From assembly GCA_016206085.1 (NCBI GenBank), contig JACQSF010000002.1:1-54262 (forward strand): 54,262 nt of DNA, given 5' to 3'. The translations under genes were made by a program, and so were the position numbers. Origin of the DNA: Candidatus Uhrbacteria bacterium (GTDB taxonomy: Bacteria > Patescibacteriota > Patescibacteriia > UBA9934 > GWF2-40-263). The notes below the pieces were generated by a model. That model saw only the letters and a program-made list of their open reading frames with translations, was not told the origin of the DNA and did no database searches. Shown one piece after another: positions 547 to 52,356 of the stretch. Positions within the stretch are counted from its first letter, which is position 1. Each line of letters begins with the position of its first letter.

Positions 547-837
547 TTATTCATTCTTCAACCCTGCGAAGCCGCCCAAAATAGCACCGACGAGGGTTCC
601 AAGACCCATGCCTAAAAATGGAGCAATGACTTGTGGACCCTCCTCAAACACATCCGGTAGGATGATGATCGAGATATATTTAATCGCGACTCCCAAGATG
701 AGACCCGCGATGAGACCGGCGATCGCGCCACCAACGGAGTCGCGAAGCATGTTAAGGAACGGACTAATTTGTTTTGCCATAAGGAACAAAGATAAGAGTA
801 TACAGACAGCATACTTCTTTCGATGTATTTTTTCCAT
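547..837 (-). CDS. Small Gly-rich membrane protein (hypothetical)
   Basis: 96-aa ORF with two hydrophobic GxxxG-rich helices. Start uncertain (783 is an alternative). Confidence 0.55.
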   Translation of the reverse strand: MEKIHRKKYAVCILLSLFLMAKQISPFLNMLRDSVGGAIAGLIAGLILGVAIKYISIIILPDVFEEGPQVIAPFLGMGLGTLVGAILGGFAGLKNE

Positions 838-864
838 GCATCAGGTATAATGATTCCACTCCTT

Positions 865-1638
865 ATGGCGCATATTATTTCCGTAGTTAATCAGAAAGGA
901 GGTGTGGGGAAAACAACGACGGCTTTGAATTTAGCCGCGTTTTTAGCTTCTGCGGGGAAGTTCATCTTGCTTGTCGATCTTGATCCTCAAGCCAATGCGA
1001 CGTCTGGTGTTGGTATTGATCACAAGACGTTACCCGCTGGTGTCTACGAGGGACTGGTTGGTTCTCATGCTTTGCGTAACTTGATTCATCCGACCGCGCA
1101 CGAAGGATTGAGTATCTTGCCAGCAACTCAGGCTCTTGCGGGAGCAAGTGTGGAATTGGTGAATGCGGAAGAACGCGAACACTTCTTACGCAAGGCGCTT
1201 CTAGAAGTCCGCAATGACTACGACTACATCTTCATCGATAACCCGCCCAGCCTTGGCATGCTGACCATCAACGGGCTTGTCGCGGCTGACTCGGTGCTTA
1301 TTCCGGTTCAGGCCGAGTATTTTGCCCTGGAAGGTCTCTCGCAATTACTCAACACCGTGAACCTCGTGCGCGACAACATCAAACCAGATTTGGACGTCAT
1401 GGGAGCCGTGATCACAATGTATGATGGTCGCACACGACTCTCCAAGGAAGTTCTCGAAGAACTCTACCGATACTTTCCTGATAAGATTTTCCGCTCCGTC
1501 ATCCCGCGTTCGGTTCGTCTGGCCGAAGCCCCGAGTTTTGGGAAAACCATTTTGGGTTATGACCCGGCGTCGAAAGCTGCCAAGGCGTACGAACGTCTCG
1601 CTCGAGAATTTTTGTTACGTGAAGAAGGTCGCATTTAG
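865..1638 (+). CDS. parA: Chromosome partitioning ATPase ParA/Soj
   Basis: Deviant Walker A QKGGVGKTT, DLDPQAN, DNPPSLG, IPRSVRLAEAPS. Start refined to MAHIISV. Confidence 0.96.
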   Translation: MAHIISVVNQKGGVGKTTTALNLAAFLASAGKFILLVDLDPQANATSGVGIDHKTLPAGVYEGLVGSHALRNLIHPTAHEGLSILPATQALAGASVELVNAEEREHFLRKALLEVRNDYDYIFIDNPPSLGMLTINGLVAADSVLIPVQAEYFALEGLSQLLNTVNLVRDNIKPDLDVMGAVITMYDGRTRLSKEVLEELYRYFPDKIFRSVIPRSVRLAEAPSFGKTILGYDPASKAAKAYERLAREFLLREEGRI

Positions 1639-48880: not shown

Positions 48881-49641
48881 TTCTTGTTTATCGTCTCTCA
48901 TCATTTTTCGTTGCAAGCGTGGCTGTCGTCGGGTTTTTGGCTTTGTTGTTCACGCGGGTGCATCCATTTGCGATCATGGTGTTGACATCCCTGGTTTGCG
49001 CTCTGGCACTGGCACGACTTCTGGGGTGGCACATTGGCACATTTCAATTTTGGCATCTTTTAGGAACGCCTCTCCTCCTGCTTGTCTCAAGTTTCGGTCC
49101 ATTTCTTCTGTTGGAAAATCAATTTTCTAAATTTGGGCTGGCTGTTCTGGTGGTAGTTTTTCTTTTCCTTTTTGTCGAACACGTCTTTAGTTTCATCCAC
49201 CTGCCGATGGCGTACCAGCCGTTTACCCTTGAATACCTCTCTGGTCTTTTGCATATTATTTCCGTGTTCTTTCTCTCCGTTTTAGGGTTTGGACTCTCGT
49301 TGTTTTTGCAAACGCCGTTGTGGATGCTTTCCCTCGTGTTTTTTTTGATTCTGTTCTTTATCGTGTACGGAACCCTCTGGGCGGGGAAAGTGGATCCTTC
49401 TCGAGCTCGTCCCTACGCTTTTGCTGGAGCCGTGCTCACAACAGAGCTTTTTGCGGCGCTCACGTTTTTGCCAACAGGATTTTATACAAACGCCGCGTTG
49501 CTCGCTCTGGGAGTGTATGTTTTTCTTGGTCTCTCTCGTGCGCATGCGTTACATAAACTTTCTAAGGAAGTATTACGTCGGTACCTGATCGTATTTATTG
49601 TTCTGACACTTGTTATCACTTTGACTTCTCAATGGGTTTGA
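48877..49641 (+). CDS. Polytopic membrane protein (hypothetical)
   Basis: About 8-9 hydrophobic helices. Confidence 0.8.
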   Translation: MILVYRLSSFFVASVAVVGFLALLFTRVHPFAIMVLTSLVCALALARLLGWHIGTFQFWHLLGTPLLLLVSSFGPFLLLENQFSKFGLAVLVVVFLFLFVEHVFSFIHLPMAYQPFTLEYLSGLLHIISVFFLSVLGFGLSLFLQTPLWMLSLVFFLILFFIVYGTLWAGKVDPSRARPYAFAGAVLTTELFAALTFLPTGFYTNAALLALGVYVFLGLSRAHALHKLSKEVLRRYLIVFIVLTLVITLTSQWV

Positions 49642-50732
49642 TGCCCTCACGCTCTATGTCCAATCACTCCTGGTCGCACACCATTCGCATGATCTTTTTT
49701 TCTTGCCTCCTGGGAGGGGTGGCGGGAGTTTTAGGTGCCGCTCTTACCACAGCGTATCTTTCTGATTATGCGATAGGGCTTGGGAATGTGAGTCAGAATT
49801 TGGGACTTTCACAACCGCGGCCACGTATGATTCCTGAAACCTATGCTCAAGCGCTTGATGTTCTGCAGGAGCGCGCGCTTCCAGCAATAGGATCGTTGTT
49901 TTCGGCCTCGAGTATTTCCGAGACTGGAATAACCATCGCACAAGCACAGGCCAGCGTGATGGCGCTCACAAGTGACGGGTGGGTGCTTTCTCAGACTGGA
50001 CGGCTAGGCGATAAAATCGCCTTTGCGAGTCAGACATGCGAAGTCGATGACGCGCTCTTTGAACCTTTGTTCGGTTTTGTATTTTTGCACTGTGCATCAA
50101 GCGATCGACTCGTGGTTGATTTTGCCCCCGGCTATGATATTGAGGCAGGGGACCAGCTGTTTGTGGTCAACGACGGTGAAGTCGTGTTTACACAAGCCCG
50201 AGCGGTTGTTTGGGGGGACGCGGTTCGATCAAGCGATATTCCATCGCGTCGGATTCTGTTGACCAATGACGCGGCTGTACGCAAAGGCGCAGCTGTGTTC
50301 AATGTCTTTGGTGAGTTTGTCGGGGTTGTGCATGAGGGTGACGAGGGAATAGAGGTAGTTCCCTTTGAACAGCTCGCCGGAGCGTTTCGACAAGTGCTCG
50401 AATCGGTCGACACGATTACGTATCCCAGTTTAGGTGTGCGTGGCATTGATCTTGCTCGAACCGTTGGGGTGTCAGAGGACGTTTCGCAAGGGCGTCATGT
50501 CGGATTTGTTCTGTACGGTCCGCGAGCCGTCCCTTTTGGTTCTGCCGCACAAAAGGCTGGACTGCAAGTTGGAGACATTCTGCTTTCTGTAGAAGGTGTC
50601 ACGATCAATGGAACGTACGCGCTTGATGATCTTCTTACGTCATATTCCGCGGGACAGGAGATTCGTGTGGAGATTGAACGCGATGGTTCTCAACAAGAAG
50701 TCATCGTGACATTGGGAGAGTTGGAGATATAA
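49632..50732 (+). CDS. HtrA/S1C-like protein with PDZ domain and degenerate catalytic triad
   Basis: TM, ALTSDGWVL, AAVFNVFGEFVGV and a PDZ (SAAQKAGLQVGDILLSVEG); no His, Asp or GxSGG at the expected positions. Confidence 0.8.
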   Translation: MGLMPSRSMSNHSWSHTIRMIFFSCLLGGVAGVLGAALTTAYLSDYAIGLGNVSQNLGLSQPRPRMIPETYAQALDVLQERALPAIGSLFSASSISETGITIAQAQASVMALTSDGWVLSQTGRLGDKIAFASQTCEVDDALFEPLFGFVFLHCASSDRLVVDFAPGYDIEAGDQLFVVNDGEVVFTQARAVVWGDAVRSSDIPSRRILLTNDAAVRKGAAVFNVFGEFVGVVHEGDEGIEVVPFEQLAGAFRQVLESVDTITYPSLGVRGIDLARTVGVSEDVSQGRHVGFVLYGPRAVPFGSAAQKAGLQVGDILLSVEGVTINGTYALDDLLTSYSAGQEIRVEIERDGSQQEVIVTLGELEI

Positions 50733-50742
50733 CGTATAATAC

Positions 50743-50809
50743 AGAGCGCTGGGGGTTAGAGCGTTGGGGGTTAGTACTAATGCTCTAACGCTCAAATCCC
50801 TAAAGCTCT
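50743..50809. repeat. Inverted AGAGCGTT/TTAGGGA short-repeat arms with no enclosed gene (empty site)
   Basis: AGAGCG(C/T)TGGGGGTT x2 joined at AGTACT to an arm whose reverse complement matches the start of 51458-51491 at 29 of 33 positions. Confidence 0.8.
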
Positions 50810-50814
50810 CCCCT

Positions 50815-51459
50815 ATGCCTCAACCCAATTATCTACGCGACATTGTTCACAACTGGCACACGGTAGCGATGTTTGGATTGTTGGGTCTTGTGCTCGCGCT
50901 CATCATCTCGTTTATTCAACCCCTGAAGTATTCTTCCACCGCACGACTTCTGATTTTGCAAGATGTTGGAACAGGGACGGATGCCTACACCGCTTCTCGC
51001 TCAGAAGAGCGCATCGCGGATAATCTTTCCACGCTCATTTACACAAGCACGTTTTTTGACCAGGTGATGGATGCGGGGTTTTCGATTGAAGAGTCAATTT
51101 TTTCAAATGACCCGTCCAAGCAGCGCAAAGAATGGGGGAGAACGGTGAAAGCCACGGTGGCACGAGGATCAGGGCTTCTGACCGTGACGGCCTATCATCG
51201 CGATGTAGACCAGGCCGAGCAGCTTGTGCGAGCGATATCATTTGTTCTCACCGATCGAGTCGCGGAATACACCTCCGGAGGGGATGTGTCGGCGCGGCTT
51301 GTGGATGAACCCCTGAATTCGCGCTGGCCTGTAAAGCCTAATGTGATTGTGAATGTTCTTTCCGGGTTCGTTCTAGGTGGCTTTGTCGGTATTGCCTTTA
51401 CTATTTTGCAAGTAGAACGCGTCAGACGCAGACATCAGCTGGTGCACGAGGACGTGTAG
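50815..51459 (+). CDS. Wzz/CapA-like polysaccharide chain-length regulator
   Basis: Two terminal TMs, P.KYSSTA.LLI after the first, P.PVKPN...N before the second. Confidence 0.8.
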   Translation: MPQPNYLRDIVHNWHTVAMFGLLGLVLALIISFIQPLKYSSTARLLILQDVGTGTDAYTASRSEERIADNLSTLIYTSTFFDQVMDAGFSIEESIFSNDPSKQRKEWGRTVKATVARGSGLLTVTAYHRDVDQAEQLVRAISFVLTDRVAEYTSGGDVSARLVDEPLNSRWPVKPNVIVNVLSGFVLGGFVGIAFTILQVERVRRRHQLVHEDV

Positions 51460-51491
51460 AGCGTTAGGGATTGGAGCGTTAGAGCGTTGGG
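51458..51491. repeat. Left short-repeat arm of the four-helix-bundle module
   Basis: AGAGCGTTAGGGATTGGAGCGTTAGAGCGTTGGG. Confidence 0.8.
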
Positions 51492-51492
51492 T

Positions 51493-51867
51493 ATGGCATA
51501 TTTGAGCTATCGGCAACTGGAAGTTTGGCAAAGATCGATGGATCTTGTTGATGGGATCTATAAACTCACAAAAGTTCTTCCAGGTGAGGAACGCTATGGT
51601 CTTGTATCACAAATGAGACGATGTGCCGTTTCTATTCCATCGAATATTGCTGAAGGTAAAGCAAGAGGGACGACAAAGGAATACAGGCATTTTGTTCAGA
51701 ACGCCTATGGATCTGGAGCGGAATTAGAGACTCAATTGGAAATTTGTGTACGTCAGAATTTTGTTTCAAGTGAACAAGCAAAAGAAGTTTTTGCGCTTTT
51801 AGACCAAGTCGTGAGGATGTTAAATAGGCTTATTCAGAAGCTTTCCCCCCAACGCTCCAACCCCTAA
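51493..51867 (+). CDS. Four helix bundle protein (23S rRNA IVS-protein/bAvd-like family)
   Basis: YRQLEVWQRSM, P.EERYGLVSQMRR.AVSIPSNIAEG..R.T.KEYRHF...AYGS.AELETQL. Confidence 0.93.
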   Translation: MAYLSYRQLEVWQRSMDLVDGIYKLTKVLPGEERYGLVSQMRRCAVSIPSNIAEGKARGTTKEYRHFVQNAYGSGAELETQLEICVRQNFVSSEQAKEVFALLDQVVRMLNRLIQKLSPQRSNP

Positions 51868-51881
51868 TCCCTAACGCTCAA
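51846..51881. repeat. Right (inverted) short-repeat arm, overlapping the gene's stop
   Basis: CCCCCAACGCTCCAACCCCTAATCCCTAACGCTCAA; shares GAGCGTTAGGGATT with the left arm in inverted orientation. Confidence 0.8.
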
Positions 51882-51998
51882 TTAAAAAGCCCATTGTGAG
51901 AACCTTCTCACTGGCATATCAACACGAGGAGGAGGCGCGTTGATCGCTGCAAGAAGGCCCTCAAAATGGGCTCTTTTCGTTTTCACGAAGTGGAAACG

Positions 51999-52036
51999 AC
52001 CCTTCCGTAGCTCGGCTGAGCCGAGCGAAGGAGGGT
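51999..52036. repeat. CCGTAGCT-[hairpin]-AGCGAAGG palindromic repeat
   Basis: ACCCTT-CCGTAG-CTCGGC-TGA-GCCGAG-CGAAGG-AGGGT. Confidence 0.7.
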
Positions 52037-52125
52037 GTGGAATTCGTTACAAATTCAACGGCAATAGGGTACCAAACTGGCCGTTTCGCGTCAACGGACG
52101 ACAACAGAATCTTTGCCAGGTTCCC

Positions 52126-52154
52126 TTGACAAAAAGTGCCTTCCATGATATCTT
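52126..52154 (+). promoter_or_regulatory. Putative sigma70 promoter
   Basis: TTGACA-17 nt-TATCTT with a TGn extension, about 320 nt upstream of the next CDS. Confidence 0.6.
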
Positions 52155-52333
52155 GCTCCGTTCACAATTACCTTGAGTTCCATTCATTTCAAGTCTATAT
52201 CTGTGTCCTGAAGCGGTTTGATGGCCACGTCGCAACACCTCCTCCTTGTTGTGATGCTGATCATCGAACCACTCCAGTACATGGCTATGCCCATGACTGT
52301 TTGTTCCCTACAACAAGTCTAGGTTAGAGAACG

Positions 52334-52356
52334 GTAGCCGCAGGCTTTAGCCTGCG
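52334..52356 (+). repeat. GTAG-tagged REP-like hairpin
   Basis: GTAG-C-CGCAGGC-TTTA-GCCTGCG. Confidence 0.7.

Follow-up and report, generated by a model that had tools for sequence, protein, structure and literature searches.

The sequence analysed here (hereafter, the window) is a stretch of 54,262 nucleotides, positions 1 to 54,262 of contig JACQSF010000002.1 (assembly GCA_016206085.1), from the genome of an ultra-small Candidatus Uhrbacteria bacterium (Patescibacteria); this genome, coded G000, is 877 kb long, has a G + C content of 51% and comes from groundwater-type metagenomes. The window carries a gene for a 124-aa four-helix-bundle protein of the 23S rRNA intervening sequence (IVS) protein family, which is enclosed by two inverted arms built of short repeated units. 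As far as its sequence tells, this cassette exactly fills the last gap of a predicted transcription unit, from the stop codon of a gene for a Wzz-like membrane protein to a conserved structured RNA. The reading that we favour is that of a cassette like an rRNA IVS which resides in an mRNA and is moved by recombination in its flanks and arms. Taken as a whole it is, in our judgement, somewhat better than an even bet; its structural and evolutionary parts stand considerably firmer, and the processing of the arm duplex by RNase III falls a little short of even chances.

The cassette and its exchange between lineages

The protein matched the PF05635 profile over positions 1-105 of 106 with 130.5 bits (cut-off 33.8) and TIGR02436 with 125.8 bits (cut-off 24). 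Its nearest solved structure is the homopentameric four-helix bundle 2GSC (XCC0516), with a phmmer E-value of 1.4e-27 over residues 5-117 of the cassette protein. These matches bear out the family assignment made in a preliminary description of this DNA. A PADLOC search gave no defence-family match for this protein or for the Wzz-like protein.

The arms consist of 7-8-nt units and are 34 nt (left) and 34-36 nt (right) long. The left arm starts within the TAG stop codon of the Wzz-like gene (51457-51459) and ends 1 nt before the ATG at 51493, and the right arm encodes the last 7-8 residues of the four-helix-bundle protein. The positions (51458-51491 and 51846-51881) and sequences of the arms, as well as the overlap of the right arm with the stop codon, agree with the preliminary description. 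Joined by a short linker, the arms fold at −52.6 kcal/mol (z −10.3), and none of the 200 shuffles made for each structure was as stable. As in an IVS, terminal inverted repeats form a long stem around an ORF (open reading frame). Homology to relatives breaks exactly at 50741-50811, where a gene-less hairpin lies, and at 51460-51881; around the cassette, its last position is 51459 and it resumes at 51882-51884.

Flanking arms are a habit of the whole family. They were scored as the complementarity between 100 nt around the start codon and 120 nt around the stop codon, with a threshold of at least 14, for 66 PF05635 genes from 40 genomes of the same order as the window's genome. This score was reached by 49 of the 66 genes (74%), whereas among 1859 ORFs of ≥100 aa from the window's genome, taken as controls, only 3 reached it, one of them the cassette gene itself. 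The arms are therefore tied to other four-helix-bundle genes too, an association on which the preliminary idea of a mobile unit depended. Throughout the family they adjoin the ATG, often extend into the 3' end of the ORF and consist of 6-9-nt near-repeats. The arm sequence varies between copies, the six copies in G019 having six different arms. Some protein clades have one unit type across genomes, such as the GTAGA-type arms in six genomes (95% support in the Shimodaira-Hasegawa-like approximate likelihood ratio test, SH-aLRT), and another clade bears arms of reversed polarity.

A separate observation concerns the only other ORF in the window's genome that has a high flanking-repeat score and does not belong to a miniature inverted-repeat transposable element (MITE). 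This 174-aa ORF (G000 C30:60433-60957) resembles Cas2 or PaaX by eye (VAFDFPE...QLSVW) and has copies of the hairpin GGAACATAAAGTTCACGATCG on both sides.

All sequences compared are metagenome assemblies; G-codes denote genomes and L-codes orthologous loci. The junction downstream of the Wzz-like gene was found in several states. In the naive state (L163), the stop codon is followed after 1 nt by the conserved RNA, and a small terminator hairpin is present in G003 and G006. Armed cassettes occupy the junction in the window, in the loci L101, L107, L108, L117, L131, L118 and L120, and in G024, G036, G027 and G037. A gene-less array hairpin is present in G012, a single arm in L110, a pair of arms holding a MITE instead of the gene in G001, and MITEs alone in G004. 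Filled, empty and naive states thus occur at one and the same junction, and the presence/absence polymorphism expected of a mobile unit does exist among the relatives.

A particular layout was found in L150 (2143-2745 of JAGVQB010000007.1), where the Wzz-like stop codon is followed by a full GGTGG hairpin with arms of ~70 nt, then by the four-helix-bundle gene and then by a second C-rich arm. This L-R-gene-R' order may represent a transition between filled and gene-less hairpins and suggests one route from the filled to the empty state, as a deletion from one direct C-rich arm to the other would yield a clean hairpin.

MITE-like palindromes (CTCGTCATTGCGAGG...CCTCGCAATGACGAG and TGTGTCATC...GATGACACA) were observed in the window's genome (G000 C15:200-1600), where two copies bracket a glycosyltransferase ORF, and at the junctions L005/L099 (G004) and L006/L098 (G001). 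In the sister genomes they sit at the same junctions that hold the hairpin and the cassette in the window.

Two natural mosaics document the exchange of cassettes. The loci L107 and L108, which come from different projects, share 100% identity over 2.6 kb upstream and over the last ~115 nt, and the proportion of synonymous differences (pS) in their Wzz-like genes is 0.0, but they are only 55-73% identical across the last three Wzz-like codons, the left arm, the gene and the inner right arm. The cassette of L107 resembles that of L101, with 93-97% identity in most 60-column windows (77% in one) and 1 mismatch in the 43 nt of the left arm. Between L107 and L101 the synonymous divergence (dS) is 0.345 for the cassette gene, whereas the adjoining Wzz-like gene has a pS of 0.73 and a dS of ~2.8, with its synonymous sites saturated. 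The mosaic junction of L107 was reproduced base for base in two further assemblies (three in all). The second swap, L131, is of the L101 type up to ~50 nt before the Wzz stop codon and again 3' of the conserved RNA. Its middle part consists of a window-type Wzz tail (94%) and a window-related cassette with 63% protein identity, and its arms mix GGTGG units with the window's GGGGGTTAGAGCG motif.

The crossover points differ between the two swaps and lie in the conserved flank or in the arms, which argues for homologous recombination and not for a site-specific enzyme. On these alignments, gene and arms are shown to travel together between lineages as one exchangeable allele, and recombination is shown to swap the alleles, the crossovers lying on one side in the conserved 3' end of the Wzz-like gene and on the other within the right arm or behind it. 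Comparison with the naive L163 junction revealed no target-site duplication at the cassette borders; as the cassette also holds no enzyme gene, this movement is neither transposition nor excision. Of the mobile unit proposed in the preliminary description, the joint movement of gene and arms therefore stands, and the movement shown is allele replacement by recombination.

The cassettes found 3' of the Wzz-like gene in five genomes from four families (G000, G037, G024, G036 and G027) do not form one clade. This group was fixed by genomic context, as genes directly 3' of the Wzz-like gene, before the tree was built. Forcing its monophyly cost 180 log-likelihood units and was rejected by the approximately unbiased (AU) test (p 1.8e-55). 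Different clades of the four-helix-bundle gene are shown to occupy the same slot in different families, that is, to have arrived independently. The gene is under purifying selection, as judged from a ratio of nonsynonymous to synonymous divergence (dN/dS) of 0.13.

The closest sampled relatives of the window's own protein are 47-53% identical to it and mostly lie in other genomic contexts. The maximum identity between any two sampled copies in the relatives is 61%, and the top match of the cassette protein among 5.8 billion proteins has 63% identity, so that no close homologue reveals a recent move of the window's gene.

Gene-less hairpins, proposed mechanism and alternatives

One gene upstream of the cassette, at 50743-50809, the same arms meet at a central AGTACT with no gene between them, as had been described. 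This hairpin folds at −37.8 kcal/mol (z −5.4; 0/200 shuffles as stable) and is inserted between the −10 box and the ATG of the Wzz-like gene. Of 31 positions in its right half, 28 are complementary to the cassette's left arm, a match first reported as 29/33. A scan of the 877-kb genome with the 31-nt arm, which the preliminary description had called for, yielded exactly one other match at up to seven mismatches, the upstream hairpin, and no match in three mononucleotide shuffles of the genome. Another contig carries a third, likewise gene-less site with the cassette's units (G000 C10:36635-36701).

The hairpin on contig C10, of the GAGCGTT type, adjoins a lone CCACCT array (G000 C10:36635-36765), CCACCT being the type of the cassette in G012. 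Hairpin and array precede a GC-rich gene, and in G012 an armed cassette is found at the corresponding place by the homologue of this gene. Orthology of the C10 hairpin site and the filled G012 site is only suggestive, because the neighbouring GC-rich genes belong to a multi-copy family.

The upstream hairpin is absent in G002, G003, G005, G006, G007 and G012. The gap between the PDZ gene and the Wzz-like gene in which it lies is empty in most relatives; it contains a hairpin in the window, G001 (of the GGTGG type), L101, L107/L108, G036 and G037, a MITE-like palindrome in G004 and a second cassette in G027. Its absence from relatives shows that the hairpin is an insertion. In the window, L101, L108 and G036 it shares its units with the resident cassette, with four different unit types, and the recombinant L107 has kept a hairpin that matches the displaced L108-type cassette. 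Two gene-less GGTGGA hairpins were found in G012, with a GGTGGA-armed cassette 3.4 kb away. We infer that the upstream hairpin is a local inverted copy of the resident cassette arms or was gene-converted from them, and we read the other gene-less hairpins named here in the same way. It had been proposed as the empty state of the mobile unit. Empty states exist at the downstream junction, but there is no evidence that the upstream hairpin is a site left by the gene, and it looks like a local copy.

Gene-less hairpins also bear on the alternative that survives best, in which the hairpins are independent host intergenic repeats and only the four-helix-bundle ORF arrives, into their loops, so that the arms are the target and not part of the element. 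Such hairpins are found at the same junction in G012 and in G001, where no PF05635 gene was detectable. Moreover, arms that adjoin the ATG and enter the 3' end of the ORF leave essentially the ORF as the conserved part, and in G027 the two sister genes that flank the Wzz-like gene have unrelated arms despite 60% identity. IVSs of rRNA likewise sit at helix tips. However, the left arm in the L107 swap arrived with the gene, close to the donor type as described above and unlike the resident one. The six different arms in G019 do not fit one host repeat family, protein clades share unit types across genomes, and in four lineages the upstream hairpin has the same unit type as the resident cassette. 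On balance, we regard this explanation as unlikely.

A vertically inherited host module, in which the protein would be an RNA-binding regulator specific to this operon, with the arms as its operator or a processing site and with presence/absence reflecting loss only, has a smaller chance still. It would agree with the purifying selection on the gene and with its location inside the predicted transcription unit. It would also agree with its frequency, as such a gene lies directly 3' of the Wzz-like gene in 11 of the 44 orthologous loci with a readable downstream junction (some of which represent the same genome twice), and two more contigs ending inside such a gene and one locus from the genome collection can be added. 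However, vertical orthology of the slot occupants was rejected by the AU test of their monophyly, the divergence of cassette and flank is decoupled in both directions in the L107 and L131 mosaics, and the nearest relatives of the window's gene are found in other genomic contexts.

It is very improbable that the protein is an Avd-type accessory of the genome's reverse transcriptase (RT), as in diversity-generating retroelements (DGRs), with the hairpins as retrohoming-type target structures. The family is homologous to Avd (PF22296, E 5.1e-05; PMC10053308), and an Avd-like ORF lies beside an RT-like ORF on contig C34 of the genome. However, the score for the Avd equivalog NF033474 (25.2) is far below the cut-off of 80, the RT-like ORF has an Avd-like neighbour of its own, and the same architecture recurs in many genomes (with RT content unchecked there). 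In the stretch read, no RT gene or obvious template/variable repeat pair was noticed beside the cassette, although no search was aimed at them. On C34 (G000 C34:520-1000), the Avd-like ORF (569-868, minus strand) has a weak PF05635 match, and the RT-like N-terminus of its neighbour (MSDIFDQIVSYENLFAAWQEFRRGKR) was called by eye, with no profile search; weak PF05635 matches of the same length and profile range also occur in G002 and G006.

The chance that assembly artefacts or accidental palindromes explain the observations is practically negligible: although all sequences are metagenome-assembled and assemblers can be misled by repeats, dozens of independent assemblies show the same architecture, three assemblies agree exactly on the mosaic junction, an alignment (no k-mer analysis) showed at the left breakpoint no long stretch shared by resident and donor, as needed for a mis-join, and the statistics against shuffles and control ORFs also speak against it.

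In the favoured reading, that of an rRNA-IVS-like cassette in an mRNA, the arms would pair in the transcript into a duplex of 25-30 bp, which would be cut by the cell's RNase III; the genome contains an RNase III gene (TIGR02191, 221.6 bits). Much as an IVS leaves the pre-23S rRNA, the cassette mRNA would thereby be freed from the Wzz-like mRNA and from the downstream RNA, and the insert, removed from the host transcript, would do little harm to the operon. According to the folding calculations, looping of the gene out of the mRNA by an RNA stem is thermodynamically plausible. The presumably pentameric, Avd-like protein may act on the repeat arrays.

Several observations weigh against this reading. 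The right half of the hairpin (R1) and the left arm of the cassette (L2), with the Wzz-like gene between them, often show the strongest complementarity (28/31 positions in the window, 35/40 in L101 and 36/38 in G036). When the whole transcript is folded at equilibrium, the nested pairing R1:L2 + L1:R2 is favoured over two simple hairpins in the window, L101 and G036, that is, in 3/4 lineages; the summed duplex energies favour it clearly in L101 alone and marginally in the window and G036, and they disfavour it in L108. Among the 353 non-Watson-Crick positions in the arms of 49 cassettes, 63 are G·U, 82 are A·C and 208 are of the transversion type. There is thus no excess of sense-strand G·U, so that nothing indicates selection on a sense-RNA stem over DNA. 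The mispairs mainly reflect different unit variants, and arm complementarity probably arises by copying at the DNA level, with which an RNA role of the duplex stays compatible. G001 retains array hairpins, yet no PF05635 gene was detected in its 87%-complete genome. Finally, no recent event was found for the window's own cassette among the sampled relatives (identity ≤63%), so that the documented exchanges concern this slot in sister lineages, not the window's cassette itself.

A broader view can be offered only tentatively. Four-helix-bundle IVS proteins and unit arrays might constitute one self-maintaining genetic system, in which the pentameric protein of each cassette recognises its own 7-8-nt unit, keeps the two arms complementary through copying of DNA or gene conversion and seeds nearby hairpin sites or converts them to this unit type, whence the gene-less copies, and in which deeply diverged alleles persist and are shuffled between lineages at fixed slots beside highly conserved RNAs; the classical rRNA IVSs would then be the rRNA-borne subset.

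Neighbouring genes and the predicted transcription unit

The features of the locus are listed in Table 1.

Table 1. Features around the cassette, in window coordinates.
Feature	Position	Strand	Remarks
PDZ-domain protein gene	49632..50732	+	Pfam PDZ_2, E 3.1e-10; first gene of the local co-directional run
Promoter-like site TTGGGA-17-TATAAT	50712..50740	+	Consensus scan, 10/12 matches; pattern match only
Gene-less hairpin of the cassette's units	50743..50809		L1 50743-50775, R1 50779-50809, centre AGTACT 50773-50778
Wzz/GNVR-like (polysaccharide chain-length-determinant-like) membrane protein gene	50815..51459	+	Conserved host gene between both sites
Left arm of the cassette	51458-51491	+	AGAGCGTTAGGGATTGGAGCGTTAGAGCGTTGGG; units AGAGCGTT, AGGGATT, GGAGCGTT, AGAGCGTT, GGG
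Four-helix-bundle gene, 124 aa	51493..51867	+	23S-rRNA-IVS protein family; PF05635/TIGR02436 profiles
Right arm of the cassette	51846-51879/81	+	CCCCCAACGCTCCAACCCCTAATCCCTAACGCTC; complementary to left arm; holds TAA stop 51865-51867
Structured-RNA-like block	51884..51982	+	Loop AGGAGGAGG; right boundary of the cassette slot

The position of the PDZ gene 5' of the Wzz-like gene is conserved in relatives. The promoter-like site directly precedes the gene-less hairpin; relatives keep a TATAAT/TATACT box there, which stands 10-12 nt 5' of the ATG in those without the hairpin. The Wzz-like gene is present in 32/40 relatives; its assignment is based on weak Pfam GNVR and Wzz matches below the cut-offs and on a TIGR01006 match (5.9e-09) that is also below its cut-off. 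The structured-RNA-like block has 85-99% identity in the five relatives compared (91-99% within the genus), as against ~74-82% for neighbouring coding sequences (CDS). At its end lies a terminator-like site (51956-51972) with a T run, the first one 3' of the promoter-like site. On this pattern evidence, the hairpin, the Wzz-like gene, the cassette and the conserved block are predicted to form one transcription unit. An Rfam search over 50500-52600 gave no match at E ≤ 1 for the conserved block, only two sub-threshold chance matches, and no rRNA match at E ≤ 1; the cassette is flanked by the Wzz-like CDS and the small conserved RNA.

A second conserved RNA-like block (~52126-52300), for which Rfam gave no match at E ≤ 1, follows a TTGACA-17-TATCTT promoter and carries CCUCCUCC, complementary to the loop AGGAGGAGG of the first block. 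Positions 52400-53900 of the window form an island of 70-75% G + C with an ORF (52478-53866) for a 462-aa signal-peptide protein. This protein had no match in NCBIfam (a Pfam scan was not part of the search), and its paralogues, with D/T/A/S repeats, are found on contig C10 and in G012.

Comparison with known systems

Repetitive extragenic palindromic (REP) elements, the REPIN-RAYT system and MITEs share several traits with the cassette, as they are short palindromic intergenic elements with gene-carrying and gene-less forms that lie in gaps at operon junctions; in sister genomes, MITE-like palindromes contend for the same junctions as the hairpin and the cassette. Unlike these elements, the cassette has no transposase or nuclease and no target-site duplication, its arms are not shared between copies in a genome, and the only movement seen is homologous replacement. 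A transposon with terminal inverted repeats or a MITE was ruled out by the missing target duplication, the six different arms in G019, the differing breakpoints of the swaps and the lack of an enzyme. REPIN-RAYT was rejected because the only ORF between the arms is that of the 124-aa four-helix-bundle protein; RAYT was not searched for in the rest of the genome.

The DGR accessory protein Avd (bAvd, PDB 4DWL) has a homologous four-helix-bundle fold, and the nearest solved relative of the cassette protein, 2GSC, is a pentamer. Identity with Avd was rejected, since the cassette protein stays below the equivalog cut-off (NF033474, as given above) and no RT-like gene was noticed in the ORF list around the cassette; the RT-like ORF of the genome, with an Avd-like gene of its own, is on contig C34.

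Pairs of inverted G-rich heptamers have been described as GGGNATC in Xanthomonas and GGGGA(C/T)T in Nostoc (Rehm et al. 2015, PMC4692102), with 70-75 convergent (inverted) pairs per genome in Xanthomonas; the repeats are transcribed. They resemble the arms in having 7-nt units with G runs (AGGGATT and GGGGGTT in the cassette) and in lying between co-directional ORFs near stop or start codons. The passages searched in that paper name no gene between the pairs and no link with PF05635, whereas the cassette arms are tied to one gene family. With only two G runs each, the cassette arms have too few for a four-tract quadruplex.

The closest likeness is that to the ORF-bearing 23S rRNA IVSs of Leptospira and Coxiella (PMC4990558), in which an ORF of the same protein family lies in a long stem of terminal inverted repeats. 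In Coxiella burnetii, RNase III excises a stem-enclosed S23p ORF (the helix-45 IVS), and tandem heptamers (GACAGAT) stand directly before the ATG, as in the cassette. Further common traits are the location inside a transcribed unit, a sporadic distribution and the horizontal transfer proposed for IVSs. The cassette differs in the defining feature of an IVS, as it lies not in rRNA but between a protein-coding gene and a small conserved RNA. In addition, its arms are unit arrays on both sides, gene-less copies are found nearby and its exchange is documented by mosaics. The Coxiella ORF is decaying and probably untranslated (PMC4990558), whereas the cassette ORF is under purifying selection.

Direct repeats of heptamers in front of start codons have been described, and so has the presence of the four-helix-bundle family in rRNA inserts of the candidate phyla radiation (CPR). 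A hairpin-wrapped gene cassette in operon junctions is not described in the literature that could be searched, which covers the rRNA case (PMC4990558), inverted heptamer arrays (PMC4692102) and CPR rRNA inserts.

For about thirty years, an explanation has been sought for the origin of rRNA IVSs and for the role of the conserved ORF that they carry. To this, the locus described here adds a graded series of states at one orthologous junction, together with two natural recombinants in which gene and arms move jointly between lineages while the gene stays under purifying selection. It also makes several questions testable: the binding of the protein to its own arrays, the cutting of the arm duplex by RNase III, and what keeps divergent alleles circulating. 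By analogy, and with the same moderate confidence as the whole reading of which this forms a part, the cassette would be the counterpart of the ORF-bearing 23S rRNA IVS, placed in an operon junction instead of rRNA.

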